A stretch of 64,000 nt of DNA from Blasia pusilla. Lineage: Eukaryota. Position numbers and translations under genes: made by a program. Positions 1 to 64,000 of this stretch are shown one piece after another. Under the pieces are notes generated by a model. That model did not search any database, had not been told where the DNA came from, and was given only the letters and a program-made list of their open reading frames with translations. Positions within the stretch are counted from its first letter, which is position 1; every line of letters begins with the position of its first letter. The stretch lies in NCBI GenBank assembly GCA_050084515.1, contig CM114271.1, positions 32,550,001 to 32,614,000 on the forward strand, in the 5' to 3' direction.

Positions 1-59
1 GTGGCTAGGGTTGCTACATAGCAACCAAAGCCAGAGGTTGCGTCCTCTCCGAGTGAGAT

Positions 60-3000
60 CACGATGGAGACTTGGGAGCCTGTGATAGTTCTCAAGTTGA
101 TAGGAGGAGAGCGTCGGCGAGTTCATAGGTTTTTGAGAGGGCATGTCTAGTGCTTTGCCTTCAGTATGAGAGACTTGGGTATGCTAAAGGGTCTCGGGAT
201 ATGGATTGAGTCGGCTAGTGATATGCCAATCTTTCGTCGACCCTACAGGTATTCTGATATGGAGCGAGCCTTGATTCAGAGCAAGAGTCATGACTTGTTG
301 GAGGCAGTACTTGTGGAGTTATCACATGGGGAGTATGCATCTGCCACAATCATGCCGGCGAAGAAGGATATGTATGGCAATTGGACAGATAGGCGGATGT
401 GTGGAGATTACCGTCCTATCAATCGACAGACGAGGTCAGATCGGTACACCATGCCTACTCCTAAGGAGATCTTTGATGCGGTAGGGCATGTAAAGATCTT
501 CAGTACTATAGATCTTTGTACTGACTATCATCAACTTCCTATCAGGTTGGAGAACAGGGAGAAGACAATATTCAGGGGGATAGATCGGTTCGAGAAAGAT
601 TGCTTGTATAAGTGGCGGTTCTTACCATTTGGGTTGAAGAACGCGCCTGCAGAGTTTTAGATAGTGATGGATAGGATTCTGGCTGGCTTGGATTTTGTAC
701 GATGTTACATACATGACATTCTTATCTTCAGTTCCACCGTTGAGGAGCATGAGCGACACCTGGAGGAGGTGTTTCGGCGATTGCAGTTATATGGACTGAA
801 GTTACATCCAGACAAGTGTAGATTCTTTCAGGACTAGATTGAGTACTTGAGACACATCATATACCCGAGTGGGTTAGGTGTTCAGCAGACAAAGATGGAG
901 GCTATTGCGTAGATTCCACGTCCTACAGATGTGAGTCGAGTCCGAGCATTTCTTGGACTGGAAAACTTCTATCGACGGTATGTCAAGGGTTTTAGAACGA
1001 TCACAAAGTCTTTGGCCTTGTTGACGAGACTTGATCAGGTTTGGTTGTGGGGAGATGATCAGGAGCAAGCATTTCAAGAGCTTAAGGACACGTTGACGTC
1101 CTCACCCATTTTACAGAGACCGATTAGGGGTCGCCCATTCTAGTTACATACGGATTGGAGCATGTTGGGTCTAGGATCAGTGCTTACTCAGAGGGATGAC
1201 GAGGAGAGGGAGTTTGTTGTGGCTTACGCGAGCCGATCGAAAAACATTGCACAGGAAAAGTACAACTCCTACAAGGGAGAGTGCTTGGCTGCAGTGTGGG
1301 CCGTGGCACATTTCAGGAACTATTTATTCGACAACCCTTTCACACTTATCACTGATCATCAACCATTGAGGTGGTTGATGGAGTCCGACAAGCTTACGGG
1401 AAAGCTTGCCAGGTGGGCTCTATTAATACAAGAGTATGAGTTTGAGGTGGTTCATAGGCCATGCCGGCTGAACCAGGATGCGGATGGGTTGAGTCGTAAC
1501 TCATGTTCGAGTCAGAGAGACGATACAAGAGCTCGATGGCATGGAGTGAGTGATGAGGATATGGTGCCGGGTTGGCATGCATCTGCCTATCTTTGTTGGT
1601 TGACTATGGTAGGTCAGCCACAGGTGATGACTCCAATCGTGGGATTGGATGATGAGTCTTTGGATCCGGAGGTCAGTGAGGAGGCGATAGGTGGTCGTGA
1701 TATCCATGACGATGTGGAGGTTGTGGAGTTCTTGCGCATTGGCGTCATAGCGAGCACAATGAGTGCTAGGGAGCGGGATCGGATCCTACAGCGAGCTAGG
1801 AGGTTTAGGCGGGATGGGAATCACATTTTGCGAGTATGGGGAGATGGTAGGATACGAGTGGTACCTCATCCTTCTCAGCGAGCACGTGTAGTGCGACTTG
1901 CCCATGAGGAGTTGGGACATTTTGGAGTGAAGCACTTTTACAAATTTTACTCCGATTCGGTGATTGGTGGCGTGACATGCATACTGGGATACATCAGTTT
2001 GTGGCCAAATGTATGGTATGAGACAGAGTGCGAGCATCCTTCAATGCTCCCACTGCACAATTACATCTTTTTGCCGATTATGGGTTTAGGTTATCGGTGG
2101 AGTTTATACTTTGCGGGACCTTTGCCATTGACAGGGAGTCATCACAGGTACGTGTGGGTCATGGTGGAGCATTTCTCCAAGTGGATAGAGTTGGTGGCAC
2201 TACCGGACAAGGCTAGCAAGGGAACAACTTATGCATTTCTAGATCGTGTGCTTAGTCACTTTGGTGCACCAGCGGAGGTGCTTATTGACCAGGGTACCGA
2301 GTTCAGGGGAGAGTTTCAGGCCTTGTGTGATTAGGCGCTGATAGATCCGCACCACGTCCAGAGATCATCATGCGGCGGATGGGTTGGCGGAGATAGTAGT
2401 ACAGACGGTGAAGAGAGGATTGAGCAGGTATGGCTTGCAGCAAGGACAGTTGAGGGAGTGGGACCTACACTTGCCATGGTTGGCTATGGGTTATTGCTTT
2501 AGTCGGCAGGCATCCTTGGCGTCATTTTCACTATACTTTTTGCTCTTTGGGAGAGAGCCAGATTCACCGGCAGCTATTCGACGTGACATGGCGGAGGTGT
2601 TAGATCTTGATGATCCAGATGTGTGAGTACAAGCGTGTTCTCAGAGGATGGAGATTTTTCGTAGAGTTATGCCTATCGCCTTTGAGAACTTAGCTATTGC
2701 TCAGCATAGAGATACATTGAGGTACGCGACCATTTGTGGAGGAGGTTATTGTCCAGGGATTAGGAGGTTTCATCCTAGAGATTACGTGTATCTACAGCAG
2801 ACGGCACCCACAATGCTAGGTGTCACTGCAAGGCGCACAATCCTATGTGTGCGCAAGGTATTATCGACTGGAGTCCTCATGTTGGAGGGACGGGATGGTA
2901 TGGTTTGGAAGGATCATGTGCGTAATGGTGCGCCATGTCATCTTCTGAATGTAGACGGGACAATAGATCCGAGCTTGGCAGTGGTACTGCAGGCTTGATA

Positions 3001-4167
3001 TCGCGACCCTCATAATCAAAACGTCGAGCAAAACATCAGAACTCAAGTGAACTCACGCTGTGAGGTTTGCGCTTTGGAGAGGCGTTTGGAAAGGTCTCTT
3101 GGAAAAGTCTAAGAGACAAAACGCGGAACAGAGTTGTGCGTTTCATGCATTAGTGGTCGTAACCAGGAAACCTAGACCAAATGCAAGCCAAGAATTGAGA
3201 TGAGTTGAGTCTTGGGAGGTTGGTTGCCAAAGAGGTGAGAATCAGTTTGGAACACGACTAGCGTTTGGGAGAATCTGACTGTGTTTAGGACCATAACGTT
3301 GAGCTCCAAGATGAATTTGGGACAAATAAGAGCACATTGGAAAGCTGATCTTGAGACGCTTCCAACGCACCAAAGATCTCAAAAAACTCATAAGTACAGG
3401 TTGAGATATTGGCCGAAAATGATTTAGAGAGCGATCGGGTTGAGGGCCAATTGGAGAGGCCTGGGTGTCTTTACCTAAATGTAGGGGGCCCCGGAGATCC
3501 CCAGAAGTACTAGTAAGGGAGGAGTCTCTCCAAGATATCTCGGAACACGAATCCCCACTTTGGGTGCCAAACGGCGTTTCAGAGGCACGGGATGGAACGA
3601 GACTTTGGCGTTGGAACTCGAAACCCAAACCTGATCCAAGGGAGTGGACTTTGTACGCCACACTTGGATTCCAATCCGAGATTCACTTCGTGCGAGTCTT
3701 GGTGAGGAACTCATTGCATGTCCATCAGACAGTTGGAACCGCCAGGCGCGAAACGTTGTTTCAGGTTCCTGAACCGACCATAAAGTCTGTCCCAAGTCTT
3801 TCGAGATTTGCGCGTTTTGTAAACCACAAAACTAGGAAGGTTGAGCTTGATGAGAGTCCGAGACAAGAACTCGGAAAGTTAGCCTGCTGATTGATCCAAG
3901 ACCCGACTAACTAGAGTGCGTGTTTGGATGCAGATCAGCGCTGAGAGCATGACCTACTGAACGCACGCTTCCGCAACAAACAAGATTAACGTTCAAGGAG
4001 AGTAGGCGCACGACACTTGAGGTGTATATTGTGCGAATCTGCGAGGGGTGTAGCCACCATGTTGGTATGTGATGCTTGTTCTCGAGGGTGGCATATGTCA
4101 TGTCTGACCCCCCTCCCCTCTTGATGTAGTTTCCACATGAGGATGGATGTGTCCGAGATGTGTATAG
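60..4167 (+). pseudogene. Degenerate pol (RT-RNaseH-integrase-PHD) of copy 1, interrupted by the 2999-4015 insertion
   Basis: ORF fragments 166-660, 931-1143, 1162-2334, 2384-2626 and 2648-2998; PHD remnant RCILCESARG..LVCDACSRGWHMSCL..WMCPRC at 4016-4167; many stops and frameshifts. Confidence 0.9.
2999..4015. mobile_element. Solo-LTR-like insertion (~1.0 kb) with 5-bp TSD
   Basis: Starts TATCGCG (decayed TGTCG), ends CACGACA; CTTGA on both sides (2994-2998, 4016-4020); removing it restores AGLRC before the PHD; homologous to 6149-7121. Confidence 0.88.
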
Positions 4168-4392
4168 GGTAGTAGGTCATGTCAGAGAGATGTGATATTT
4201 TCTATCTGGAGTTAGGGGGATCCAACTGCCAATTAGGGGGGCGGTTGTGTGATCTCCATGTATATGTATGAGTTGATTTTTGTATATGTGTGGATTGACC
4301 CGTATGTGGGGAAGATCGGTGTTGTGTGGTGTAGATGTGACCAGCGATGTATGTTGTGTAGCGATATGTATGCGCACGACAAGTTTGGTTTT

Positions 4393-4695
<303 letters not shown>

Positions 4696-19400: not shown

Positions 19401-20067
19401 GTGGTTGGCGATGGGATACAGATTTAGCAGGCAGACATCCTTAGCTTCTTTTTCATGGTACTTGCTACTTTATGGTCTAGAGGCAGATTTACCTTCGGCC
19501 ATTCGTCAAGATGCTGGTGAGGTGCTGGACCTTGATAACCCAAATGTATGGATTCGAGCATGTTCTCAGAGGGCTGAGTTGTTTTGGAGAGTGATGCCCA
19601 TGGCGTTTGAGAACTTGGCAATTGCGCAACATAGGGATACGTTGAGGTAAGCGACTATTCGCGGTGGTGGTTATCGACCAACTATCCGGAGGTTTCATCA
19701 GAGAGATTATGTCTACTTGCAGCAGACGGCACCGACAATGTTGGATGTGACTGGAGGACGCACTATCCTGAGAGTGCGTGACGTTTTGCCATATGGTGTT
19801 CTCTTGCTGGGGGGACGCGATTCTATGGTATGGAAGGACCATGTGCGTAATTTTGCGCCATGTCACCTTCCTAACATTGATGGTACATTAGATCCGAGCT
19901 TAGCAGTAGTTCCTGCACGCTTGCGTTGTATGTTGTGTGGTTCTGCCCGTGGTGCGGCTATGATGCTAGTATATGATGGATGTTCGAGAGGTTGGCTTGT
20001 GGCATGTCTGACGCCATCTCTCACTAGGGTTCCTCGGAGACGATGGATGTGTCCCAGATGTACATAG
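13434..20067 (+). pseudogene. Degenerate gag-pol of copy 2
   Basis: Gag (RFSGAVGTIELHDF; CWSCGGAHHQRDC), protease ILLDSGAQP, methyltransferase, RNaseH, integrase (HEELGH..CMVC; LTDQGTEF) and PHD (CMLC...WMCPRC). Confidence 0.9.
16190..17190 (+). pseudogene. DNMT3-like C5 cytosine methyltransferase domain, copy 2 (disrupted)
   Basis: DLFGGISTG, DLVI..PC, YILENV, RAHRPHLWWTN, GFPTGV and HVLGQAMD motifs with stops. Confidence 0.88.
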
Positions 20068-22222: not shown

Positions 22223-22226
22223 ACAC

Positions 22227-22332
22227 TGTCGTGCGAATCCACATCGTCATACAACATACATCGCTGACATACCATACGCACATACATACATAACATAGAC
22301 GAGAGTATCCACAAACGCAAGTGTACCACAAC
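22227..22332 (-). repeat. Repeat B2 of copy 3 (3' terminus)
   Basis: Near-identical to 22704-22808. Confidence 0.95.
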
Positions 22333-22696
22333 TGAAATCCGTGAAAGACCTACTGTCATAAAACACGTTTACAATCACATACAATCGAGCCAAACCCACT
22401 CCACGATGGGAGAATCCAGGTTAAGCTTGGAAACACCATAGCCAAGAGCTCTACTCACTACCAAGGCTAACTCCCAACGAATAACAGGCTCAACTCAAAG
22501 AATGATCGTTCTTTGAGGGCAAGCCACCTTATATCCTCCAACCTAAGAGCGGGCCCTACTAGGAAAGTCACCCCAAGTGAGTAACCCCAACCCTATGTAT
22601 GGAACCACATCTCTACCAAGCCACTATGATCCTACATAAGGAATGGCCTCTACCAAAGACACCATACTCTACGACATAATCCGTATGGTCATGACA
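22333..22696 (-). repeat. Repeat A2 of copy 3
   Basis: Near-identical to 31587-31956. Confidence 0.95.
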
Positions 22697-22699
22697 ATT

Positions 22700-22808
22700 T
22701 GTCGTCGTGCGAATCCACATCGTCATACAACATACATCGCTGACATACCATACACACATACATACATAACATAGACGAGAGTATCCACAAACGCAAGTGT
22801 ACCACAAC
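22700..22808 (-). repeat. Repeat B1 of copy 3
   Basis: Near-identical to B2; preceded on the sense strand by TTAGGGGGGCGA (22809-22820). Confidence 0.95.
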
Positions 22809-22980
22809 TCGCCCCCCTAACTGGCGGTTAGGTCCCTCTAACTCCCAGGTAGCCCTATACATCTACTACATGCTATACACCTTCTTGGGTGCCGAATCAG
22901 AAGGCCGGGTGCTAGGTTGCCCCATCGTTAGTCGCACATCTGTAATCCATATCATGCAAAGATCAAGTCATCTACCTCTC

Positions 22981-25900
22981 TTAAGTACATCGAGGACAAA
23001 CCCACCTTCCAGTAGGAACAACATCCAAACGTGGAGTCAAACACATCATGTGCCAACCCCTAGAACACCGATCACACACCAACATACGGGCTGCGTTACC
23101 AGCAGACCCACACAACATGCAGCTAAAGCTAGCACGTATCATGGCTAAGCTTGGGTCAACAGTACCATCCACATTTGGAAGATGACATGGCGCACAATTA
23201 CGCACATGGTCCTTCCAAACAACTCCATCACGACCCTCCAACATGAGAACTCCGAAGCTAACACCTCACGCACTTGTAAAATAGTGCGGCTGCCGTCACA
23301 TCCAACGCGTTGTCGGGCAATCTGCTGCAAATAGACATAGTCCCCACATGGAACCTACGAATCGATGGTCGATAACCTCCACCCGAATGGTTGCATACCG
23401 CAACGTATCCCTGTGTTGAGCAATGGCAAGATTCTCAAAGGTGTTGGCATAACTCTCCGAAAAGAGCTCCCGCACGAGAACACACCCTCATCCACATCTC
23501 TCGGGTCATCAAGGTTCACCACCTCACTAGACTCCCGACGCAATTCGCTTTGGCAAGTCCGGATCTCGGCCGTATAATGTAAAAATAAGGTGAGAAGGAA
23601 GCCAAGGATGCTTGGCGATCGAACCTATACCCCATGGCTAACCATGGCAACCGAATATCCCAATCTCCAAGATGCCCCTTCAGAGGCCATACTTGCGCAA
23701 TGCCCTCTTCACCGCCTGAACCACACGCCAGCCAAACCATCCGCCTCTAGATGATCTCGAGACGTGGTCCGATGATCAATCAACGCTTGTCACACAAGAC
23801 TTGAAACTCATCCGAAACTCTGACCTTGTCGGTCAAGACTTCAGTGGTGCACCAAAATGACTAAGCACTCTATCCGAAACGCATACGCCGTTCCTCACTC
23901 GCCTTGTCCGGTAATGCCACCAACTCAATCCACTTGAGAAGTGCTCCACCATCACCAACACATATCGATGATGTCGAAATACCAACGGTAACGGTCCCGC
24001 AAAGTCCACACTCCAACGGTAACCCAACCCCATAATAGGCAAGGGGTGTAATTGTGGTGTAGGGGCATTAAATGATGCCCTCACCCGGTCACAAACCATA
24101 CAACGTGACACCAACTGCTGCACCTGAGTATGCATGCCACGCCACCAATATAGGCCAAGGAGTAAGCTATACGACGCTTTACCCCAAAATGTCCCAACTC
24201 CTCATGGGCATGTCGCACAATGCGCTCTCTCGAGCCAAATGTGGCACTACTCGTACTCTACCATCCTCCCACACGCGGAGAATATGTGTTCCCTCCAATC
24301 GATACCTCTTAGCACGTTGAAGAACACGGTCTCGCTCCTTGGCACTCACTATGCTTGGCACCCTACTGGTCCGTAGGAACTCCAACACCAACGCATCATC
24401 ATGAATATCACGTTGATCCGTACCACCATCTCCAACCTTAGGATCTCAAGGTGGCCATCTACCCTCGACTAGAGTAAGATATCATGTGGTCCTCCATACT
24501 AGAGTCCACCTAACCAACATAAAAAGGCGGATGCATGCCAACCTGGCACCATCTCCTCATCAACCTCGCCATGCCATCTAGCCCCTATTGTATCCTCTTG
24601 GCTAGTACATGGGTTCCTACTCAACCCATCAAAGCATCAAGGTTGGCAACCCAAGTCTATGTACCACCCGGAAGTCATACTCTGTAAGATAAGAGCCCAC
24701 CGTGCAAGCTTCCTGTAAGCTTGTCCGACTCCATCAACCACTTGAGCGGTTGGTGATCGAATAAGGGTAAACGGGTGCCAAACAAGTAACACCTAAAGTG
24801 TGCCATGACCCACACTCTTGCCAAGCACTCTCCCTCATATGAACTATAGCGCGACTCACTGCATTATTCGAACGACTTGCATAGGCCACCACAAACTCCA
24901 TGTGCTCATCATCATGTTGTGTCAACACCGCTCCAAGTCCCAACCTACTCCAATCAGTGTGTCATCTGGAAATGGGCGCCCTCTCATAGGTCTCCTCAAG
25001 ATAGGCGCCGCCACCAACTGGGCCTTAAGCTCCACAAAGCTCTCTCTGATCATCTCCCAGTGCCACTCTTGATCTGGTTTCAGCAATTGATTCAAAGGCT
25101 TTGCCATAGCACTAAATCCCTTCACATACCTCCGATAGTAGTTCGCCAATCCCATGAATGCTCGAACTCTACTCACATCTACCGGACGCGGAATAAGTGC
25201 AATAGCCTCCACCTTTGCTTCTTTGAACTCCCAAACCACTGGATAGATTACATGACCCAAGTACTCAACATCCTCATGGAAGAACTTACACTTACTTGGA
25301 TGCAAACGTAGACCATGAGCTTTCAACCGCTCAAACACCATCTGCAAATGTATCTGATGCTCCTCCACCGTGTTACTGAACACCAAGATATCATCAATGT
25401 AACACGGAACAAAATCCAACACCGCTAGGATCCTATCCATCACTCTTTGAAACTCGGCAGATGCATTCTTCAACCCAAAGGGTAAGAATTTCCACCGGTA
25501 CAAACAATCCTTGCCATGAGAGTTGACACCCCAAAATGTTGTCTTGGCCTTGTCACTCTCCCGAATCGGCAATTGATGGTATCTGCCGAAGATCCAAATC
25601 TGAAAATCTTTGCATGTCCCACCACATCAAAGATCTCCTCAGGTGTAGGCATGGCATACCTATCGGCCTTGGTTTGCCGATTGATAGGACGGTAATCTCC
25701 ACACATCCGCCTATCCGTGTAGTTGCCATGCATATCCTTTTTAGAGCATGACAGTGGGCGATGCATACTCTCCATGCAACAACTCCACTAATCCAGCCTC
25801 CAAAGGTCCAACGTCCTACTCTGAATCAAGTCCCTCTCCATATCACTATATCGGTAGGGACGACGGAAGATTGGCGTATCACTAGCCAAATCAATCCGTA

Positions 25901-28900
25901 TACCGGTCCAACCAGAGAACCCAACTCCTTCATGCTAAAGGCAAAACAACTCCTATGAGCACGTAGGAACTGTGTCAGCGTCGTTTCTCACCTCCCGTAA
26001 GCTTGGGCCCAAGTAATGGCTCCCAAGTCTCCTCCTTTGGCACACTAGAGGGAGAGGACGATGCCATTGGTCGCACGCAACCCCCTCACAAGATGGTACA
26101 CCCTTAGCTACACCATGATCTCGAGCAAATAACTCCTCCACCAAAGATGAGCAACCAACTCCACATGCCCGGCCATTACATCCCATCTACTCCAAGGATG
26201 CAAAATACTACTCTCCTCGCTTGACCGATGCCTCTACCGTCCCGGTAGCCATCGAGCTTATTACAAGGGGTGGAAGACCCACAGACATAGTCCGAAGTCG
26301 ACACCGCTCGCCATACCAAGACTCAAAATCCAAGTCAAACACCCAGGTCCATGGCCTGACCCAACACATGACGTCATGAAGCCTCGTAAATAGAAGCAAA
26401 TTTGTCACACCAATAGCAAATCCCATCATGACGCTCTCTCTCATCAGCGTTAGGCTCACCAACGCCGCACATGAGAATCCCATACAAGCCGCGACCACCT
26501 TCCTCGTAGGCATGTGACGAGGGAAAACTCACAAATGTGGGTAGTGCCATCCTAGGTGGCCCACACGGTTCACCAACGCCATGGGTGACCGATCAATAAC
26601 CCTCACCACTTGAGAAAGTCCCAATATTCAAGATACTATCCTTTGTGAAGGCGAGGATCATTGCCTTTGACGCCTCATATGCTCGACGTAGAACCTCCTA
26701 GGCAACAAGTTTGTCCACCACAAGCGTGGGCGATGTGCACGCTGAGCCAACTCCAGCATCCAACAACACCGCTGGTCCAATCCAAGACCGCACTCATGAA
26801 CACTCGCCATCATCCGGTTCGAGTGTCACCCAACAATGGAACATTCTCCAAAATGTAAGCTAGAGTACGTGCTCGATGAACTGAAGATGTCGTAACACCT
26901 GTAACATCTCCCAAAACAATCGAGACCTAGGGTCATGTAATCCCTCACCACGACCAGCATGTGTATGACCCTGACATGGCCATCTAGCAATCACCAAATC
27001 CACAGGACCAACCCTCTCAAGGTCCTGTGCCCCCAACAATGCAATGTGTGATGGTAAAGCACGCTGGTACCCACGAATAGCGATGGCGGCAACAACTCAG
27101 ATATCTCCGCATCAATCGACCAATATGTCGGGATGAGACTCTGGGCCGTCTCATCTCGCTCCACATACACGTATCTCCGCATAGGAATACCGGCCTGCAA
27201 CACTGCCGCCAAACCAGTGCTAATCCCACCAAAGAGATCTAACACACAAATGCCCTCCAGCAGATATTGCCATACAATGGGTGTAGTATCCAAAGGGAAT
27301 AACCCAACTGGGCCAGAAGTAGGAGTCCGCCGTGGGGCCTCCTCTTCCTCGTGAGGTATAACAACCTCACACCAAGCCTCCTCGCACTAGGCGACGCCTC
27401 TGCCGTAGTGCACCGCTTGAACTCCAAAGTGGCACATCCAACGATGAGGATGCCACCTTTGCTGCAAAAAAATAGGGACCTCCTCTACCTCCTCATGCGC
27501 AGGAGAATCCATAGCGAAACATTACCCTCCAAAAGTCTCCTGCCAAGTGACTACTCCACTAAAACCACCACGATGCTAACACTGTTGGGGAAGACCTCTG
27601 GTCGAGCCCCGTAAATAAATCTCATAGGAACTTGGCTCATACGTCCATCCCGGACTGCCAACCAGGTCTCAGAAGAAGATTTGTCTCGACCCAAGTAATC
27701 CATCTGAAAACCCATCGGTACACATCGCTCCTCCAACTAGTACATCATACGACTCGCCGATGTGACTACATGCAGATACTCCCAACCGGAGCTATCGGGT
27801 CGCATGATCTGGTCTCAACTGTACAGAAAACTTTTCCCGTGTCATGAATTGAGACCTATCATTGGCTCCTCCAAGTGATGTTTGAATGGAATGGGCAAGG
27901 CTCAAGCTCGACCTCGAATACCCAAACCAATACATGCCGCCTTTCCCAACATCAAGGTTGGGCACCGAGTCTAACAAGACTCTATCTGGTCTATACACAT
28001 CTGTAGGACTCACCAATCGGAAGATCCACTCCGGTTGTCCAACATACATACACCAGTGTAGCCTCTCACGATCAATGGTGGCCGGGTGGTAATGCATCCA
28101 TCTTCGCCGCCGTCGCCAAGTATCACCGGGTACTCAATGCTACTTGACATAGAGGGTCGCTCCACCGCAACACCCTCATCCACCTCAACACGTAGCAAGA
28201 ATAACACCCCACGTTCACACAACGTGGTCGCTAATCAAATACAAGAGCTAAGTCAACTCCTAAAGCCATCAGCTCCGTGGCCGAAAACAATGGGGATCCC
28301 AACACTGAAGTTGCCATCCGCAATACTGCATTGGATGTTGCATCCGTGTCTACTACACGCGATGTAGATGCCTCAGTCCCCACTGTCGGCTCAATAGGCT
28401 GCGTAGGAACCATGGATGGAGTCCTAAGCACCTCAAACAACAAGAATGATTGGGGAAGCCTAGCATGCCTCCCAGCCTCACCCCTCTATGGGTCCAACTC
28501 CACAGTAGCACCACGTGGCTCTGACGCTCGAGTGGCTCCTCTCAGAATCGCACTGATGGTGATCCTCAACTTTGTCTTGCACTCGCCATATAAGAGAGAT
28601 CATCCCTCCATAAGAGGTGGAAGCCCCTGCTCCCGAACTCCGATCTATCTTTGGATACCACCATAGTAGCCAACTTCTGCTCCAACTGCTCAATCCTGGC
28701 AGCCATAGCTGACTCTGTCGTAGTGGTAGGGGTAGCCACCGTAGGCTCTCCAACCACTGGTCCACCTCTACCACCCCTACCACCTCTACCACCTCGGCCT
28801 CTCGGAGCTACTCCACCACGGCCACGGCCTGATCTCAACTCTGGATGAAGATCAAAGCAACGCTCTCGAGGATGACCTAGTCTCCCCGCAATGATCACAC

Positions 28901-29990
28901 TGAGTTGGGGCCGACGAGGCCCATCCTCCAAAGTCCGTCTCCCATCCTCTTGGGGACAAAACTTCCTAACATGATCACCTCCACATGTCCAACATGATTG
29001 TCCTCTTTGCGGGGCAGCAAATGAAGGCAATGGTCTCTGCACAAATGTCCTCTAGGACTTGACTAAGGTCGCGTGTACCCCACGACTCCCACTACTACTA
29101 CCACCACCACTACTACGAGACTGTGAGGTGGGCGGCTGAACAACACGAAGTAGTAGTTGTATCCCTCTTGAATGCGGATGTCATCACTCTCTCCTTCACC
29201 ATGTTAAGCTCAATCTTCTCAGATAAAGCAAACACATGGGTCAATGTGGGTGAATCATCACTCATAAGAGTAGCATCACGTACCCTACTGGCGCAAATCT
29301 CGCCCAAGATCCCTAACAAAACTAGACGCTGATCCTCAATCACACCCTAGGTAATCGAAATCAAGCATCGTGATACGAGTGTATGCCTCACTTAAGACTC
29401 TCACCGTCTTTCGCTCAAAGTCCTGAAGATTCCTCAACTTCTCCGTCTTCACTCCATGATAGTTCTTCTTCAACCTCTTGAAGAACTCTGCAACCGGCTG
29501 AACGATGGTGGGGCACTAGCCCCCACTAGTACCCCACTAGTACCTCCACGGTACCCCCCACTCCGACTGCACTCGTACCACTCAACGTCGGGCCGGGGTG
29601 GCATAGTAGGAGCACTACTACCAATACCACCATGGGTGATAGACACATAGCCAGGAGACCAATATTGTCTCCATGCCTCAATCTCAAAGAACATGGTCCT
29701 TCCTAAACTCATGGTAATCATCCATGGGTGGTCCTTCCAAGTCTTTGAAACAACCCTTCCAAGCCAAGAAGGGTGTAAACAACGCGTGCGTTCCGCAACA
29801 TCTGCATATCACACCACGTATCAAACTCTTGCATGAAGTCCTCCAACTCAATGGTGCCCATCGCACCGAGTATCGTCATGGGCCCTTCATGGCCCCATAT
29901 CCACATCCATGTCCCAAATCAATGGAGCGCAACACTTGATAACAACGTAGAAGACTCGGTGTTTGGAACACCTGGTCCTCCTCTTCATCA
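22981..29990 (-). pseudogene. Frameshifted gag-PR-DNMT-RT-RH-INT-PHD of copy 3
   Basis: CWTCGGDHVRKFC knuckle plus RGG tract, VLLDS protease, VLDLFGGISTG, CYIDDILVFS, SVDFAGP and CMLC..CDRC..WHMMC..CPRC. Confidence 0.92.
26320..27293 (-). pseudogene. DNMT3-like C5 cytosine methyltransferase domain, copy 3
   Basis: VLDLFGGISTG, YVYVERD, DLVIARWPCQG (catalytic PC intact), ILENV, AHRPRL and VLGQAMD, read across frameshifts. Confidence 0.88.
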
Positions 29991-31586
29991 ACCGTCGGAA
30001 GTGGAAAAGGTAGCCGATACCTAAATCACTCCGTGTGAAACCACCACATCCGCACTACGGTCCCCAACCAGACCACCCGACAAACTCGTGATGACCAACG
30101 CCGATGCCGCACCACCACCAAATTACCCAAGTGACGCCGATGTCGCTCTACTATTGTAGCTCTACTAGCTATGGGTGTAGGCAATCTAACCTCTCATCAC
30201 CACAAGAAGTCTCCCACAGTCTATTGGTCATCACTCCAGCCCCACTATCAGTAGCACACAGGAGTAACACTACTCCGAAATCAACGCGTAAACCCTAACA
30301 ATGGGCGGCAAGCAAGAAGCACGATGGAGGGGATCCAAACACGGAAATCCAACGACAACCCTCCAATCGCAAATGGAAATCAAGGTAACACAATCCACCA
30401 AACGTGGTGCCCCTCGAATCCACAAAACCCACCACACAATTCTAACGCATAATAGCTACTCGCCGGCCTGGTCGATGACATGCTAGTTTAACGCGCAAAG
30501 ACCTGAAAATATCACTGAATGGAGAGGCTACACCGCACTATGCGCTAGAGGTACATCAACCAAAAACCTGAGATGCATAAAGCGCCTAACACATCTCCGA
30601 ACAAAGACCAAATGAGCTACAATAGTCTATGCACCTTTGGCATAGTTAAGAACTCGGCATTAAGCGCCCTCCAGCGAGAATAGCCCAAAGATGGGTGACA
30701 GTTATGCAAAACTCAAATCCCAAATCCTGCAAAAATTTCCTCACGCCCAAGCAAGCAAGCAAGCTTGCTTGCTTGCTCCTTGCTCCTTACTCCGCCTCTC
30801 TCGCCCCGAGCTACCACGAGTTGCCTCGAAGCCTCGAATGCCGAGAAGTGCTCGAGACATGCCCGTTCTCACACGCTCGCCATGCTTCGCTATGGAGAGA
30901 GGTCCAACCAGGGCGCCCCAATGGGATAGGCGTCTCCAACAATGAACGAGTCACCAACCAACCAGCCCCTCCGATCCCGCCCACCATAGCGGACCTTGAG
31001 CTAGTCCGCGAAATTTCGATCAAAATTACTTCACAAATACGTGACCGAAATCAAATCTGTTTCGATCAGAATTCAATTGACCACCATAGCTATCTCTCCA
31101 TAGAAAATCAGCTACAACCGAGCTCAGACTCGAGCTAAAAATCAAACAAACTTGTCTGTCCATACACCTCCGAATCGCAAATCCAAAAGCGCTTCGCCAA
31201 GTTTCATGCACGCAGAAATCCGCAACGCTCCACACACTCGGCAGATAGATTCACGGAGATCACAATATGAGTAGCAACAGAACCTCTCACCCGATCTGGA
31301 TGAACTTCAACACGCTTCGCGACTCCAAGCTCTCCACATCGAAAACCGCCGAACACGACCAGAATCTTCAATGCTTGATAACTTCCAACTCCTCGACGAA
31401 ACCGCGATCTACAGCCGCGTTGAAAGCTCTCAAAAGGCGCTTCTTTCCCAACAAACGCGCACCAGATTCACACCTCCAACATAGGCCACAAGCCACAAAC
31501 ATCCACGGCTGAGTACACAATCGGCCCTAACCAGATCCTCTTGATCTACAATCGAAGCTACTATCGATCTACTCCGGTTCTTTGAG

Positions 31587-31956
31587 TGAAATCCGTGAAA
31601 GACCTCTTGTCATAAAACACGTTTACAATCACATACAATCGAGCCAAACCCACTCCACGATGGGAGAATCCAGGTCTAAGCTTATGGAAACACCATAGCC
31701 AAGAGCTCTACTCACTACCAAGGCTAACTCCCAACGCACGCACAAAGCTCAACTCAAAGAACTGATGTTCTTTGAGGGCAAGCCACCTTATATCCTCCAA
31801 CCTAAGAGCGGGCCCTACTAGGAAAGTCACCCCCAAGTGAGTAACCCCCAACCCTATGTATGGAACCACATCTCTACCAAGCCACTACGATCCTACATAA
31901 GGAATGGCCTCTACCAGCACACCATACTCTACGACATAATCCGTATGGTCATGACA
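31587..31956 (-). repeat. Repeat A1 of copy 3 (5' terminus)
   Basis: Repeat of A2; not followed by B on the sense strand. Confidence 0.95.
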
Positions 31957-54892: not shown

Positions 54893-55380
54893 TGTCACGA
54901 TTGTTAGGATAGATCGGTGGAATCTAGCAGAGTGTCTGCACAAGTAGTGGAGGATATGCCCAAGAGGTCGAGGATGAACTGTTGAGGCCTAAAGAAACCT
55001 GAGAGAGCATATTTTCCCTTCGTTTCGGCTCATTTGGAGCCATATTGAAGAACTTACTATTTTAGGTAAGTACCATTCTGTGTATATGATCGACTTTCTA
55101 TTTTTTGTAAGTGACCCTTGACCTCCTACATCAGGTCAAGAGCCAAGGAGGTGACTTGGGAGAATAGGTTACCATGGAGAGAGCTTGGGAGAGAGCTTGA
55201 GAGCTCATTCTCTCTTTGTTGAATTTCTTGGCATGAGGCGGCGGAGCTATGGTCCCTTGCCTTGTGAGTGTAACCCAAATCTCTCATTAGGAGAGTGGGT
55301 TTGGTTTGACATGAGAGAGAGTGCACACCGTTGAGAGCTATGGTGTGTGATGGTGTAGAGAGAGATTGGATCTTACTTTA
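54893..55380 (+). repeat. Repeat A1 of copy 4
   Basis: Collinear with copy 2 A2 up to GATTGGATCTTACTTTA; not followed by B. Confidence 0.92.
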
Positions 55381-57149
55381 CAAAGAGAGAATGAGAGAGT
55401 GAGAGAGCTACAAGGAGGAGCTCGCTAGTCACTTGCTATTTTTGCAGGTTGGGGACCGTGTTTCCCGTTCAGCGGCTCATGGGAGTGCTCACCGGAGCAA
55501 GGGCTCCTTTGATTGTTCTTTGCATTTGCCGATTTTTTGTGTGGAAGAGTGGCGCGCGAAAGCGCTGCCCAATTTCTGATAGGGATTGATTATGGGGGCG
55601 GGTTGTCCCATGCCGGTGCTCTCGAGAGCACCATGTAGCTTGCTGATTTGTAATTTTACAGGTTTTACATTTTGGTTGGGAGAAATCAGCACGGAAGCGC
55701 TGCCAAATTTTGTGTAGGAGAAAAAGATATTGGAATTTACGACAGTCCCCGTCAATTTTTATTGGAATGTCCAATTCCAAAAAAATTGAAGCCGATGTAG
55801 ATCTTGAAGCTTTGCACGTTGTGCAACAAACGGTGCACAATTTGGAGTTGCGAGTAAAAAGTTAAGGTCAATCTTGCAAAACTGCTATTGGTAGGCAATT
55901 TTTAGGGTTAAATTGTTCAAACCCTAAACTAGCCGTCATAGTCACCGTCATTGATCAATGGCCAACAGTCAACCGTCACCATCAACGGTCAATTGTCATC
56001 CTCAGCCATCAACTGTCACCGTTAACGGTCCGTTGTCATCATCAACGGTCCACGGTCCAACGGCCACCGTCGGCCGTTGCCGTTGCCTAGCGTTGCTCAG
56101 AGCCGCATTCGGCCCTTGTCCACCCTTTGGTTGCCATTGCCGCCATTACGGAGTGGAGGGTCTTCCACGACGTTCGTTGATTCTCTAACTTGCGTCGCCA
56201 CCACGTACTTTGTTTTGGCCGCCACCGTCATCAAAGTTTCGTAGTCAACTAGTGATGGCAGATGACCTCCGCTTATGGTGTTTGAGTTTTGATTTCATAC
56301 TGCTATGTTGTGATTGGTAGCCGCTCAAAGATGATCGAGTACCGTGCTGTGACGCCCGCAGCCGCAACGCGCCGCCGATTGCCACGTCGTGCCGCTCGTG
56401 GCCGCACCGCACTGTCTCAATCGCGGAGCCGCACCGTCATTGTGGAGTGTGGGTTTATTGTTGATTAAGGAGGGTATTCCGCCGAGTGCCGCATCCCACC
56501 ATCGAGGGTCGTGCAGTTCGTAGCCGTTCCGTGCCGCCTGCAACGCCGCACCATTCCGCTGGAACCGCAATGTCTATCGATGAGTTTTGAGCAACATCTG
56601 TACGGGAGGAGTATGACTTGCTGATTGGAGGAGTTGTCTCCATGACCGAGTTGGGATTGGATTTGCAATTGCTGAGGAGCGACATCAACATGTGTTCAGG
56701 TTATCCATTATGGTCCTTTACCTTGCACGCGTAAGGGATTCTGGGAATTTGGTAGTTTATTTGGGGATATTGGGTTGTGTGGATGCTGAGAGCATGATTT
56801 ATGTCTGTGGTTTTGAAGACATAGACCTCTGTGGGATGTCCGGAGTTGAGGGTAGGTTGTCGATGAGATGATAGCCTAGTCGATTTGCCGCACCACACTA
56901 CTTTTTGCCCCACGTTACACCTCTCGGGGAGGGAGAGTGTAGATCGAGTGCCGCATGTTTGGGATGAGTGATTGAGGGATAACTCGCAAGGTTGAGAGTG
57001 ATCATGTGAGAGGGGCACGAGGGCCATCACGACGTCCTTTCAGGATTTTTAGAGGAGAGGTAATGGACCTGATAGTAGCTCTTGAGGGTTTACCCGGAGT
57101 GGTGCGAGGTTTCGAGGCTCTCCACGTGAAGAACCACCTCGATCTCTTT

Positions 57150-60100
57150 TAGTGTTGTCTTCAGACAAGGGGGAGTGTGTAGAGGAGTTTGTGAGCACAT
57201 CGCCACACATTGTGAGTGGTCATACCAGTTGGCCATACGAGATGGACGAACGGGGTAGAGGACCGCCTAGGTTTCAGGTGCAGTAGGCACGATTGAGTTG
57301 CACAATTTCATCGTAGAGTTTAGGAGTTGGTGCGACTCCCAGCCAGCCAGGAACTCTGGAGAATTCAACCCGTTTATAGCATGGAACGGTATGTTCCAGA
57401 ATTTAGAGGGGGCGCCCATGGACGATTACCATAAGTTCTCTCAGAGATATGCACGTGAGACCAAGGCGTGGAGGCTCTACTATGACCCACATTATGTATC
57501 ATGAACGGAGCCATTCCCAGATAAGGAGGAGGAGTCAAGAGAGGCTACTTCCTCTTCCACTAGTGACGTTCTAGGAGGGATCACTCGCACGGGAGCCGCT
57601 GCACCGTCTAGTCGGGTTCGTCCCAGGTTCAACCCTGTGGTTGAGTTCTTTGCTCAGTTGAGGGCGAGCTACCAGGGGGTACGGACGGAGAAGTTGCGGA
57701 GCATCCACGACTTCTAGAGGCGCCCGGGTGAGAATTTGCGTGAGGCTTACACTCGCTTGCGCCGGTTGATCAACGTTACTCAGGGGTGACAAAGCCTTAG
57801 GCTATCCAGTCATGGTATGCAATGTTGGACCGGACCCTACAGACACGGGTGCAGGAGGGGGTGCTTCTTATGAACACCTCCCCTACGTTGAGAGATGTTC
57901 TTAGGACCACCGAGAACATTGAGCGCAACATGGCCGAGGAGAGTGTATCCACCATGGGTTCAGGGCGAGAGCACTCACAATTGCCTGCACTACCTGTGCA
58001 ACAACATGGACTCTGAGATAGGTCGACTGTGGCACCACGAGCTCAGGGAGGATACCGAGAGGCCGTGCCATATAGACCTGCACCTTCATATGCCACTTAG
58101 CAACAACCGCCTACTATTACTTGTTGGTCATGTGGTGGAGCCCATCATCAGCGTGATTGCACTCGTCAAGGTCATGGACATGTGCCTCAGCATGGAGGAG
58201 GAGATGGTGTTGCACCATGAGGTTATCAATGTGACTATTGTCAGAGGTATGGTCATACACGCGCCATGTCTTTGATTTTAAATCCTGAGTTACGTCCGCA
58301 CCGAGGGCCAGAGAGGGCACCAGAGCGAGTAGTTGGTCCGGGTGGGCCTAGAGATCGTGCACTAGGTGGTCCTGTTGGGGGACGAGGAGCTAGAGTTGTC
58401 CGACACGGTGGTGGAGCTGCCCATGGAGGAGGTAGAGTCGTACCACCTAGATGCGCCAAGGGAGACGTCGGACGTGAGGCTAGGATGGTTGCTCAGATAC
58501 ATCAGCTACAAGAGCATATTGCCGCTATGGCATTGAGATTACCCAATGTCGGATCTGTGACATCGACATCATATGGAGCAGCCATAGATATGGAGGATCC
58601 TGGTTGGATGTGCCAGGTTGCCCAGATGGAGGCCGCCGCAGTTGTGACGGATGGAGCAGCCGCACAGTTGGATCCACAGCGAGGGGAAGCCAGGAAACAG
58701 ACTAGGCTTCCTTAGTCTTTCACGTTTTCCGAGGCAATGAAGACCCCATCGATGGGTCCTTATCAGAGTTCTTGGAGGGTTGGTGATGTTGTTGGTGTGC
58801 ACGCACGAAGGGCGAAGCGAGTGCGACGACTCCTATTGTTGATGCTCAGGAGGGGCATTTGTCGAGCACGTTGTTGGGGGCGGCCACAATTGTGTACCGC
58901 GCTCCTTTCTTTTCTGCTTCCGATGTTATGACGTTGGAGGGTACGCCCTCCGAGGCTTTTGGGCTGGCCGCTACGCTATGTGAGCGAGGAGTTGGAGTTC
59001 CTGCATCACGTTCAGAGGTGATTGCAGAGGAGGTGATGGACCTGCCCTTGGAGAGGATGCTCGCGTTGTCCACGTAAGATTCATGGCAGGCTGCGGCTGC
59101 TAGGATGGCGAAGATGCCCGCTAGACCCGCGATAGAGCGTGCCATGGCTTTTCCTCGTGTTGTATTGCAGGATAACCGAGGAGCAGTCTTCCAGTTGGTG
59201 AGTCCCAGAGGTAGAGCTTTCAATCCGCAGCGCGTCTTGTTGGATTCAAGAGCGCAACCCCTTATGTTGGGGAAAGTGTCATTCAGAGGATTGGGCTTGA
59301 CGAGAGCCGATGTGGAGCGTTGTCCATCCCGGATACAGACATCCTTGGATGGAGCGAGTACCATACAGTACATCACCCGAAAGGAGGTCGTAATGAGGAT
59401 TCGCACGGGACATCCTACAGATGAGTCCGTGGTGCGAGCTAAGGCGATAGTGACTAATGCAAAGTCCTACGACGTCTTGGTTGGTGGAGCAGTGTTATAC
59501 CCGATGGGGTTTTCCCTCGATTACTAGGAGGAGTCAACGTCCTACAGATGAGGATGGCAGTCAGGTGATGGGCGTCTTAGTTCATTACCCGTTTGATTCA
59601 TAGGTGCAGTGATCGAGCAACGGCCAGGAAAGATGGCGACCTTAACATCATTTAGCAGTGCCATCATTTGGCCTAGTGATTTGATTGAGGGACATGTCCA
59701 TGCGAAGGATACTCCCGTTCTTGACATTTCTATAGAGAGGAGTATTATGGTAGCCGTATCATTCCGTGGAGGAGAGGTGCCCTTGTGGGGCTTGATTGAG
59801 GAGCTTCGACGATTGGCACATGAGCACATGCAGACCGCGTGGAGTGAGGCGTTTTGCATCGGAGAGTGACAGGTCTGAGGAACCCGAGGTAGCACGGAGT
59901 GCTACGATGACACCCTTGGATACCACACCCATTGTGTGGTGTATCACGGAGAAGGGTATTCGAGTGTTAGATCTCTTTGGAGGGATTAGCACCGGGTTAG
60001 CTGCTGTTTTGCAGGCAAGAGTGCACGCGCAGCAGTACCTGTATATGGAGAGTGATGATGTTGTGAGGCGCGTCTCACTACGACTTGTGGCGCACTTACG

Positions 60101-63100: not shown

Positions 63101-64000
63101 CCTTCCTTGACAGAGTGTTGAGTCATTATGACGCACCGACTGAAGTGTTGACAAACTAGGGTACCGACTCTCGCGGTGAGCTCCAGGCCTTGTGTGATCA
63201 GACGTTGATCGACCACCGCACAAAACTTCGCGAGATCATCCCGAGGCGGATGGATTAGCGGAGAGAGTTGTGCAGACATTGAAGAGGGGTTTACGCAAGT
63301 ACGGCTTGCAGAGAGGTCACCTAAGAGATTGGCACCTCTAGTTGCCATGGTTGGCAATGGGATATAGATTCAGCATGCAGGCATCCTTAGCATCTTTTTC
63401 ACCGTACTTCCTACTTTATGGCCGAGAGCGAGATTCATCTGCAGCCATTCGTCGAGATGCTGGTGAGGTGCTGGACCTTGATGACCTAGATGTATGGATG
63501 CGAGCATGTTCTCAGAGGGTTGAGTTGTTTCGGAGAGTGATGCCCATGACGTTCGAGAACTTGGCGATTGCGCAACATCGGGATAAGTTGAGGTATGCGA
63601 CTATTCGAGGTGGTGGTTATCAACCAACTATCCGGAGGTTTCATCAAGGAGATTATGTCTACTTGCAGTAGATGGTACCGACGACGTTGGATGTGACTGC
63701 AAGGCGTACTACCCTGAGAGTGCATGACATTTTGCCATCCCGTGTTCTCTTGTTGGAGGGACGCGATGGTATGGTATGGAAGGACCATGTGCGTAATTGT
63801 GCGCCATGTCACCTTCCTAACATTGATGGTACCATAGATCCGAGCTCAGGAGTAGTTCCCGCAGGCTTGCGTTGTATGTTGTGTGGTTCTGCTCATGGTG
63901 CGGCCACGATGCTAGTATGTGATGGATGTTCGAGAGGTTGGCATATGGCATGTGTGACGCCACCTCTCACTAAGGTTCCTCGGGGACGATGGATGTGTCC
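57150..64000 (+). pseudogene. Degenerate gag-pol of copy 4
   Basis: ORF fragments carrying gag, VLLDSRAQP, methyltransferase, RMCGDYR, RNaseH, integrase and PHD motifs. Confidence 0.9.
59920..60915 (+). pseudogene. DNMT3-like C5 cytosine methyltransferase domain, copy 4 (best preserved)
   Basis: ORF 59796-60629 has IRVLDLFGGISTG (I), YLYMESDD (II), DISLL (III), IDLVIAGWQCQG (IV), YILENV (VI) and DAASVGSRAHRPRLWWTN (VIII); ORF 60636-60914 has ERERAMGFPTGVT (IX) and RRHVLG (X). Confidence 0.92.

Follow-up and report, generated by a model that had tools for sequence, protein, structure and literature searches.

A PHD finger ends the integrase of a Ty3/Gypsy element with a DNMT3-like methyltransferase in the liverwort Blasia pusilla

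PHD fingers on retrotransposons, the pairing of a DNA methyltransferase (DNMT) with a reader domain and Gypsy elements with a DNMT3-like enzyme (in Klebsormidium) have all been published, and a PHD finger alone is a known add-on. KnitGypsy-Dnmt3 from the alga Klebsormidium nitens (de Mendoza et al. 2018, PMC5890265) has a DNMT3-like domain, unpermuted and under purifying selection, within its Gypsy Pol, and its repeats are arranged A1, ORFs, B1, A2, B2, as in DIRS elements. The element analysed here, from the liverwort Blasia pusilla, is like it in each of these respects, compared by description. KnitGypsy-Dnmt3 has few copies in its alga, whereas the liverwort genome holds roughly 10^4 DNMT domains. 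Moreover, the text and searchable supplements of PMC5890265 mention neither a PHD finger, a self-primer nor a target-site duplication (TSD), all three of which the Blasia element has, nor a mechanism for the repeats. The Klebsormidium retrotransposon DNMT3 was inactive in yeast, a result that the authors call inconclusive (PMC5890265).

Other systems share some of these features. In Chlamydomonas, Gypsy-7a_cRei and REM1 are likewise Gypsy elements that carry a PHD finger, for which a role in limiting harmful insertions has been proposed, and for Gypsy-7a_cRei intergenic insertion is 2.6-fold more frequent (PMC9940879). However, the description there includes no DNMT, LTRs stand at both ends and the legend places PHD before INT (PMC9940879). 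EpiLTRs (bioRxiv 10.64898/2026.05.21.726589) also pair a methyltransferase as writer with a chromatin reader inside a single LTR element, although the preprint describes a chromodomain, DAM and a DNMT4-related enzyme rather than a PHD finger and a DNMT3-like enzyme. The Tf1/Sushi and plant Tcn1 chromoviruses (Neumann et al. 2019, PMC6317226) are self-primed and carry a reader at the integrase C-terminus, as here, but this reader is a chromodomain, their LTRs are ordinary and they are described without a DNMT; the text of that survey names neither PHD nor methyltransferase. Finally, foamy-virus integrase cleaves the palindromic LTR-LTR (att-att) junction of 2-LTR circles into processed ends (PMC1180852), much as we propose below. 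In that case the junction is the join of the cDNA ends, whereas the Blasia junction would lie inside the LTR and the end-join would become part of the inserted element.

The window, that is, the whole stretch of DNA analysed, comprises 64,000 nucleotides of B. pusilla (assembly GCA_050084515.1, contig CM114271.1, positions 32,550,001 to 32,614,000). It holds four copies of the family. Copy 3 has the following features, given from its 5' end:

31588..31956, minus strand: repeat A1, the 5' end of the element, starting TG, with a TATA-like box at 31792-31786 (repeat alignment)
31752..31762, minus strand: predicted self-primer of 11 nt, complementary to the primer-binding site (PBS) and lying 30 nt downstream from where the TATA-like box starts
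31577..31587, minus strand: PBS, adjoining A1 downstream and complementary to the predicted 5' end of the element
28569..29918, minus strand: gag-like region with a CCHC-like knuckle and a Gly/Arg-rich stretch (read from the sequence; no Pfam match)
27554..28234 (approximate limits), minus strand: aspartic protease region, broken (likeness to copy 4 and to the relative P0180)
26211..27386 (approximate limits), minus strand: DNMT3-like C5 methyltransferase with unpermuted motif order, broken (Pfam, PDB relatives)
24559..25931, minus strand: reverse transcriptase (RT) and RNase H, broken (Pfam; Ty3 RT is the closest solved relative, E 2.6e-32)
23122..24445, minus strand: integrase (H2C2 zinc-binding domain, rve core, C-terminal region), frameshifted (ORFs, Pfam)
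22987..23121, minus strand: PHD finger (C4HC3), the C-terminal end of the integrase (pattern match, Pfam, structural relatives)
22810..22818, minus strand: polypurine tract (PPT), adjoining B1 upstream
22700..22809, minus strand: repeat B1, ending CA
22699-22697, minus strand: 3-nt spacer between B1 and A2, forming the internal CA-spacer-TG junction
22334..22696, minus strand: repeat A2, the same as A1 at 355 of 362 aligned bases
22227..22333, minus strand: repeat B2, the 3' end of the element, ending CA
22223..22226, minus strand: 4-bp TSD, with its partner at 31960-31957

The pol order of the element is protease, DNMT3-like methyltransferase, RT, RNase H, integrase and PHD. Ty3/Gypsy membership follows from the PR-RT-RH-IN order, the Ty3-like RT, the TG...CA ends and a TSD within 4-6 bp. 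The repeats depart from this group: in place of two complete LTRs, A stands alone at the 5' end and B-A-B at the 3' end. In chromoviruses a chromodomain occupies the integrase C-terminus. As the first-pass annotation had noted, none is present here, either in 21 window fragments searched with Pfam or in eight longer proteins, and by this character the element would not count as a chromovirus. The family makes up 13-16% of a 200-kb genome sample, and close relatives occur in the gene sets of Marchantia polymorpha, Calypogeia and Sphagnum. Among the relatives listed, the nearest named alga is Coleochaete (71%), and no record bears the name Klebsormidium.

The PHD finger of copy 3 is genuine and forms the C-terminal end of the integrase in a liverwort Ty3/Gypsy element of the Gypsy-DNMT3 kind. 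As had been claimed from the sequence, pol ends with this peptide (23121-22987, minus strand), after which come one Thr and the TAA stop (22983-22981). No other match to the C4HC3 pattern turned up in the six-frame translation of the window, and the HMM comparison with PF00628 that had been suggested as a check gave E=2.9e-12 and 46.8 bits, over a cut-off of 24. In copy 3 itself the integrase is frameshifted and its final 94 codons alone are continuous with the finger, but at another place in the genome a natural copy (L066, P0002, 390 aa) has the PHD and the rve core in one frame. The remaining copies and one insertion are:

1..4380, plus strand: copy 1 (3' part), from RT to integrase, with a broken PHD, a PPT and one B-like repeat
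2997..4015, plus strand: insertion splitting the copy 1 integrase from its PHD, terminating like the B repeat, with a 4-bp TSD and recurring elsewhere in the genome
12002..21029, plus strand: copy 2 (second subfamily), A...B-A-B with a shortened A1, PHD at 19927-20061; TSD matching at 3 of 4 letters
54893..64000, plus strand: copy 4 (second subfamily), PHD running from 63873 past the window end; flanks form no TSD

The claim that all four copies carry a homologue of the finger holds, but outside copy 3 none is intact within the window. The copy 1 finger (4023-4161) has a frameshift and a stop, and is parted from its own integrase by the 1-kb insertion, which probably represents a solo A-B unit from a related family. 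Copy 2 has lost two zinc ligands (third Cys to Tyr, His to Leu), and the copy 4 finger (63873-64000) is cut short by the window end. The 5' end of copy 1 was sought in the 10 kb upstream, which gave no match to known repeats.

Both the PHD finger and the DNMT are kept by purifying selection. Between the two subfamilies dN/dS is 0.12 for the PHD, 0.11 for the DNMT, 0.06 for the integrase core and 0.12 for the integrase C-terminus, with dS near saturation. The closest PDB relatives of the finger are CHD4, MLL3, DPF2/3, ATXR5, KDM5 PHD1 and BAZ2, most of which read unmethylated H3K4. In PHD fingers that read unmodified H3, the Asp directly after the third Cys contacts H3 R2, and Pro-x-Gly-x-Trp forms the pocket for H3 Ala1; the former is present in 46/46 copies and the Trp of the latter in all 45 rows aligned at that position. 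In readers of H3K4me3 the aromatic cage has a Trp two positions ahead of the His, and another aromatic residue precedes the first Cys. The element's finger is not of this type, with Gly at the cage position in 45 of 46 copies. In readers of unmodified H3, acidic residues precede the first Cys and also occur in the first loop. The window copies have none just before the first Cys or in the loop from first to third Cys, and their net charge is +3 to +4. All 28 close alignment rows range from 0 to +4 with at most two loop acids; the more distant relatives (last 21 rows) are net negative (-1 to -8) in 16 cases, and the acidic loop of the chlorophyte-type relatives is gone from the liverwort finger. 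Given the basic charge and the loop without acids, H3 binding may be weak or changed. Its residues would at most suit binding to the unmodified H3 end and do not point to recognition of a methyl mark.

A predicted fold of the finger with the genome's own H3(1-30) scored 0.39, against 0.02 for the best of three controls, with contact agreement of at least 94% between runs and a partner pLDDT of at least 54. This score is rated weak: the band up to 0.60 held 5/78 solved complexes and all four passing mismatches in a calibration set without peptides. Since solved PHD-H3 complexes exist, the score may also reflect likeness to them.

We lean slightly towards a tethering role for the finger. After protease processing the PHD would remain attached to the integrase, and by binding the free, unmodified H3 N-terminus it would tether the integration complex to nucleosomes; lacking an H3K4me3 cage, we propose, it may steer insertion away from active promoters. 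The first-pass annotation had suggested integration guided by histone marks. A conserved finger in the chromodomain position, purifying selection and H3-reader relatives uphold part of that idea, but the residues are not those of a methyl-mark reader and the insertion bias is not significant. Of 68 insertions, 14 lie within an older member of the family, compared with 112 of 940 background points; the naive p is 0.03, but it rises to 0.10 when the uncertainty of the background is included. L013, one of the 14, is a rearranged case within its own subfamily. No target-site motif appears in the first 10 flank bases of 68 flanks.

The same charge figures, together with the weakly supported H3 fold and an insertion bias without clear signal, would also suit a finger that has given up H3 reading in this land-plant lineage and now forms a basic end of the integrase that binds DNA or nucleosomes or oligomerises, perhaps for use at the internal junction. 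We regard this as unlikely, as the R2-contacting Asp and the Ala1 pocket are nearly invariant and the closest solved relatives are H3 readers.

The repeats raise a second question, that of how the element is copied and inserted. Their order is A...B-A-B, with TG...CA ends and 4-bp target duplications. Exact 4-bp TSDs flank 14 of the 16 subfamily-A copies with both ends readable (20 examined), four of six such subfamily-B copies (12 examined) and four of six metagenome relatives having a 5' repeat. B1-A2-B2 is found in 68 of 80 copies, and the DIRS-like layout occurs also in L160, L177 and L179. A tRNA PBS begins TGG; that of copy 3 does not. In 29 of 30 copies the PBS has a complement 10 nt or longer, whereas none of 300 control 20-mers exceeded 8 nt, and the primer/PBS pairs differ between the two subfamilies. 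The predicted 5' RNA fold contains the primer/PBS stem, but its overall z-score is just -1.44, so the argument for a self-primer rests on the complementarity count. The self-primer and PPT delimit an ordinary B+A LTR, and PBS and PPT together locate the ends of the cDNA precisely where A ends and B starts, rather than at the TG...CA termini.

From this anatomy, the A2|B2 joint of copy 3 appears to be the join of both cDNA ends. Across the family this joint is identical in 46 of 68 copies and has extra bases in 10 of 68, several PPT-derived and one with the entire PPT; all 10 are independent on the tree, a test of low power. The class of the B1|A2 spacer is inherited (12 changes against 22.7 when shuffled, 0/1000).

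We think it somewhat more likely than not that reverse transcription is self-primed, that the cDNA ends are joined and that the integrase inserts the product through the internal palindromic junction. The RNA would begin in A1 and prime itself at the PBS, the plus strand would begin at the PPT, and ordinary reverse transcription would yield [B A]-ORFs-[B A]. The right cDNA end would then be joined to the left, by end-joining or a further RT jump, and integrase would cut the palindromic CA-spacer-TG junction within the left LTR, inserting A-ORFs-B-A-B with a 4-bp TSD. A symmetric 2-LTR-circle model fits poorly: its two equal junctions predict a mirror form, A-B-A-ORFs-B, seen in none of the five readable among six single-B copies, all five being plain A-ORFs-B with exact TSDs. 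This asymmetry is unexplained.

DIRS, Ngaro and PAT elements are not known to make a TSD. They share the A1-ORFs-B1-A2-B2 layout with the Blasia element but use a tyrosine recombinase (PMC12440569), whereas the latter has a DDE (rve) integrase, TG...CA ends and 4-bp TSDs. Pfam scans of the window fragments and longer proteins gave no tyrosine recombinase, and with its integrase and TSDs the element is not a DIRS member. Troyka, a possible split-LTR group, was also set aside, as it is described with CG...CG ends and a 3-bp TSD, in animals only (PMC12440569).

A linear A-ORFs-B-A-B cDNA could nevertheless be copied in DIRS style, from an RNA spanning all repeats, and be integrated in the usual way without end-joining or an internal cut. 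The absent mirror product would follow naturally, the identical joints agree with it and the same layout is typical of DIRS (as described in PMC5890265). We find it doubtful all the same: PBS and PPT set the cDNA ends away from the termini, the PPT remnants at A2|B2 are independent singletons and the recombinase is missing from the Pfam scans.

The DNA-methylation writer announced in the first-pass annotation is real. It matches C5 DNA methylase (PF00145), its closest solved relatives are DNMT3A/3C/3B (E 1.5e-8), and the catalytic positions Pro-Cys, Glu-Asn-Val and Arg-x-Arg are nearly invariant in up to 29 copies; the longest open DNMT stretch of copy 4 is 59796-60626. Protease and DNMT share a frame in Blasia copies, as do RT and DNMT in P0180 and Marchantia records. 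The DNMT changes place between the two sub-clades: one has it before RT, the other after RNase H and ahead of integrase, and chlorophyte relatives have it elsewhere than the liverwort element; the PHD keeps its place behind the integrase. On the tether reading, the DNMT would be a separate product, not switched by the PHD, and would most likely methylate new cDNA.

The ADD of animal DNMT3 is a GATA-like finger plus an atypical PHD directly before the catalytic domain. An echo of this pairing had been suggested. Taken as a mechanism, with the element's PHD reading H3K4me0 and switching on or aiming its DNMT, it fared badly. It is true that both domains are under selection and co-occur across the clade (DNMT match in 53 of 85 informative records), that the DNMT tree correlates with that of the integrase (Mantel rho 0.33, 0/300 permutations) and that one polyprotein (P0180) can carry both, so that their products could share a particle. 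However, in a single-ORF relative a plain PHD lies ~1,140 residues downstream of the DNMT end; RT, RNase H and integrase separate the two, and the coding region also includes a protease. Furthermore, the DNMT shifts position while the PHD stays behind the integrase core, four of 53 chlorophyte-type records have no DNMT match and window fragments gave no Pfam match to an ADD or GATA-type domain. Together these make such a role quite improbable. That the finger is a functionless vestige, as its breakage, or that of its integrase, in three of four window copies (the fourth being cut by the window end) might suggest, is largely refuted by its dN/dS, and also sits badly with zinc ligands nearly invariant in 46 aligned copies and PF00628 on 119 of the 120 integrase relatives listed, from chlorophytes to Coleochaete.

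Overall, a PHD tether combined with end-joined cDNA integrated through the internal junction is, on balance, the explanation we prefer. For the wider history we see an even chance that a streptophyte Ty3/Gypsy lineage changed its mode of integration. Here, Tf1-like self-priming would give a two-LTR cDNA whose ends are always joined, and a DDE integrase would use the att-att palindrome in the LTR, leaving permuted DIRS-like repeats and 4-bp TSDs. Across the wider green-plant clade, from chlorophytes to bryophytes, the elements would bear an integrase PHD together with a DNMT3-like writer that occupies either of two places in the polyprotein, and in the liverwort they would have spread some ten thousand DNMT3-like domains through about one seventh of the genome.

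The replication anatomy (A...B-A-B, self-primer, PPT, joint remnants) was not found in print. Beyond PMC5890265 and the 2026 preprint, the literature searched gave no mechanism for the repeats and no land-plant report; a description may exist in subscription journals, Repbase Reports, theses, figures or bioRxiv supplements, which lay outside this search. If true, our reading would explain how the DIRS-like repeats of Gypsy-DNMT3 elements, so far unaccounted for, arise and make end-joined cDNA, mostly a side product in retroviruses, a normal route of integration. Split-LTR elements may escape tools that look for two equal LTRs, and a large share of bryophyte genomes may be misannotated. TE-borne DNMT copies can likewise inflate DNMT3 gene counts. 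With relatives in Marchantia polymorpha, the role of a transposon DNMT and targeting by the PHD become testable in a model plant with chromatin maps.

Copy 3 of the element in the window carries a PHD finger followed by a threonine and the stop codon. The element and its finger are placed as follows:

31956 to 22227, minus strand: copy 3, made of A1, ORFs, B1, A2 and B2, with ends TG and CA
23121-22987, minus strand: PHD finger of copy 3, then Thr and stop (PF00628, E=2.9e-12)

The PF00628 search proposed by the first-pass annotation thus returned the expected match, and the finger is the sole match to the C4HC3 pattern in the window. Although the copy 3 integrase is itself frameshifted, a natural copy elsewhere in the genome has rve core and PHD together in a single 390-aa frame, so the PHD is the true end of the integrase, as had been claimed. 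The reported lack of a chromodomain also held, with none among 21 window fragments and 8 longer proteins. All four related elements have a PHD homologue, but their condition varies: that of copy 1 is frameshifted and separated from its integrase by a 1-kb insertion, that of copy 2 has lost two zinc ligands and that of copy 4 is truncated by the window end. The insertion in copy 1 (2997-4015) has a B-repeat-like end and a 4-bp target-site duplication (TSD), and recurs genome-wide. A third subfamily probably contributed it as a solo A-B unit, and near 6273-6832 there is a diverged relative. A long microsatellite, first (GT)n and then (GA)n (4390-4700), immediately follows the end of copy 1, and two 270-bp repeats (5034-5292 and 10732-11002; 74% identical) lie in A+T-rich DNA and are unrelated to the element.

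The first-pass annotation had further proposed that the finger guides integration by reading histone marks. Its best solved relatives are the PHDs of CHD4, MLL3, DPF, ATXR5, KDM5 and BAZ2. Between subfamily A (which includes copy 3; members picked by likeness to the PHD region) and subfamily B (which includes copies 2 and 4), dN/dS values, rough because dS is near saturation, were 0.12 for both the PHD and the integrase C-terminus, 0.11 for the methyltransferase (DNMT) and 0.06 for the integrase core. Residue roles were assigned by position rules for H3 readers. The position of the H3K4me3 cage Trp is Gly in 45 of 46 copies, while the Asp after the third Cys (46/46) and the Pro-x-Gly-x-Trp pocket are kept. 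Counting against strong H3 binding are the net charge of +4 and a loop without acids; among the more distant rows, 16 of 21 carry a net negative charge.

A predicted fold of the PHD with Blasia H3(1-30) and zinc scored 0.39 against 0.02 for the best control, weak by the tool's own rating, with run agreement of at least 94% and partner pLDDT of at least 54. In calibration, which does not cover peptides, 51 of 78 solved complexes passed the mark, as did 2 of 108 mismatched pairs, but scores at or below 0.60 held only 5 of the solved pairs and all 4 passing mismatches. The run used no supplied alignment, and since solved PHD-H3 complexes exist the score is likely memory. Insertion flanks showed no clear bias: 14 of 68 3' flanks begin inside a family member compared to 112 of 940 background points, for a p of 0.028 that rises to 0.10 once the background is bootstrapped, and no base preference appeared in these 68 flanks. 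Given these residues, the weak fold and the unclear bias, histone-guided targeting is plausible at most. The low dN/dS of the finger, its H3-reader relatives and the kept Asp and pocket speak for the proposal, and the fold does so weakly; the missing cage speaks against a reader of H3K4me3, and the charge and the loop against strong binding. We lean slightly towards a tether of the integrase to unmodified H3.

The element encodes, in order, a Gag-like region, protease, C5 methyltransferase, RT, RNase H, integrase and PHD, complete in the single-ORF relative P0180. Several copies have protease and DNMT in a common frame. Ty3 is the nearest solved structure to the RT, and DNMT3A/C/B are the nearest to the methyltransferase, whose motifs are unpermuted and whose catalytic positions are almost invariant (up to 29 copies compared). 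The suggested echo of the ADD plus catalytic pairing of DNMT3 does not hold up on anatomy: some 1,140 residues separate DNMT from PHD, and the DNMT position differs between clades.

An integrase-PHD query found 268 longer relatives, with PF00628 on 119 of the 120 listed; those named among the latter include Coleochaete (71%), Haematococcus, Pleodorina, Tetrabaena and a record labelled Chrzof1. In an integrase tree of 85 records and our own copy (36 of 121 records, too short upstream, were omitted), a 33-row clade with our copy and Coleochaete has DNMT upstream of RT in the 4 rows where it was seen, the other 28 records starting at most 177 residues upstream of RT. Within a 53-row clade, 49 have DNMT after RT or just before the integrase, and 4 have no DNMT hit. 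Path lengths in the DNMT and integrase trees are correlated (rho 0.33, 0/300 permutations, 44 rows), which, in a comparison with no host outgroup, makes a single DNMT capture likely. Chlorophyte-type relatives (P0044, P0047, P0108 and ~45 other proteins) place their DNMT3-like domain after RNase H and before integrase, many with 100-360 extra residues past the PHD, without a Pfam match in those scanned. JGI metagenome contigs share this domain order and these repeats (80 of 149 loci kept). Several, including L111, L113, L124, L160, L177 and L179, have near-identical repeat ends and lie at dS 0.4-0.8 from subfamily A, closer than subfamily B within the Blasia genome (dS 1.2-1.9); the element may have moved horizontally among bryophytes, or the host may be a close relative.

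The element ends are unusual, with A1 at the 5' end and B1-A2-B2 at the 3' end. Among 80 subfamily-A copies, 68 end in B1-A2-B2, 8 have B1 without A2, 3 lack a clear B1 and 1 has a weak B2. An exact 4-bp TSD was present at 14 of 16 subfamily-A copies readable at both ends (20 examined; 3 without A1 in reach, 1 without A2), at 4 of 6 such subfamily-B copies (12 examined) and at 4 of 6 metagenome copies that have a 5' repeat. The primer-binding site (PBS) lies directly past A1 and is complementary to a stretch ~30 nt downstream of a TATA-like box inside A; 29 of 30 copies match over 10 nt or more, whereas 300 controls reach at most 8. PBS/primer pairs differ between the two subfamilies, and one locus (L033) shows a matched change on both sides. 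The same self-priming is known from Tf1/Sushi, Tcn1 and TAR elements (PMC6317226). In subfamily A, a second PBS copy (31777-31752, minus strand) sits just 5' of the self-primer, with a short hairpin over the predicted transcription start. The polypurine tract (PPT) is immediately upstream of B1. From the PBS and PPT positions, the ordinary LTR is B plus A and the cDNA [B A]-ORFs-[B A], of which the inserted element is a permutation. Solo A-B units also exist, with an exact TSD (L085) or without one (L096). Two loci (L054, L064; G000 C9, C6) have B1-A2, then PBS and internal sequence without B2, as tandem elements sharing an A, through either recombination or a dimeric intermediate.

At the A2|B2 joint, the right cDNA end meets the left one exactly. 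Extra bases occur at 10 of 68 joints; some are a G or GA derived from the PPT, and L238 contains the entire PPT. A metagenome copy carries 18 nt of filler, the last letters being those of the PPT. Each of the 10 arises independently in the tree, a test of low power (shuffled mean 9.6). The B1|A2 spacer is inherited by class (12 changes versus 22.7 when shuffled, 0/1000 shuffles). It is a fixed 2 bases except in a 31-row sub-lineage, where it differs in most copies, with small duplications, possibly as footprints of repaired integrase cuts, or through assembly errors. This junction is a CA-spacer-TG palindrome; if each strand were cut just past its CA, the products would be ends processed in the usual way, bearing short 5' overhangs. 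Foamy-virus integrase cuts in this way (PMC1180852; see also PMC1905944, PMC4372172), there at the 2-LTR junction and here, as proposed, at B1|A2. We give integration through the internal junction an even chance. Evidence against a simple circle model is that its mirror product A-B-A-ORFs-B was absent (0 of 5) from the single-B copies that could be read, out of 6 tested. Each of the 5 has the form A-ORFs-B between exact TSDs, consistent with insertion of a 1-LTR circle or with recombination between B1 and B2. Conjecturally, the asymmetry would be explained if RT made one more jump, leaving the A end for the B start.

One H2B gene of the genome points to a liverwort as the most likely host: with higher-scoring tandem or fused records set aside, its top single, full-length matches come from Marchantia (90% over 84% of the query), Calypogeia (82%) and Riccia (80%). 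Own-genome searches gave 10,746 first-look candidates for integrase tail plus PHD (150 scored) and 14,667 for DNMT (140 scored), which are not copy numbers. Sampling 20 evenly placed 10-kb stretches showed DNA matches to the window copies over 13.2% of bases, and over 15.6% with protein matches added. These 200 kb hold 7 DNMT, 4 integrase and 3 PHD stretches, scaling to ~13,600 DNMT domains (95% Poisson 5,500-28,000) and ~5,800 PHDs (1,200-17,000). A1 and A2 differ at 114 of 5,764 columns (2.0%; 16 copies). The C-to-T changes, 25 at 20 CG, 22 at 9 CHG and 23 at 144 CHH sites, are consistent with the host methylating the copies at CG and CHG. Assembly errors may inflate all these counts as well as the frameshifts. 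Letters are repeatedly swapped or dropped near CHG sites in the examined loci, which suggests that long reads err where the DNA is methylated; part of the frameshifts may have arisen in assembly.

Gypsy-DNMT3 elements with DIRS-like repeats were described in Klebsormidium (PMC5890265), in a text that, in the parts available, makes no mention of a PHD; PMC12344493 restates this 2018 finding. Retrotransposon PHDs have been termed widespread (PMC6673714; 10.1101/2021.11.30.470311; PMC9940879), and LTR elements combining writer and reader, the EpiLTRs, were reported in 2026. The PHD is therefore a known kind of add-on. A literature search, with some journals, Repbase, figures and preprint supplements outside its reach, found no land-plant report, self-primer or repeat mechanism. 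Close DNMT relatives occur in the Calypogeia, Marchantia and Sphagnum gene sets (44 hits), where many hypothetical proteins annotated with PF00145 (P0318-P0356) resemble pieces of the element and might be taken for DNMT3 genes of the host. What sets the family apart from known systems is its permuted-LTR anatomy, the breadth of its clade and its copy number.
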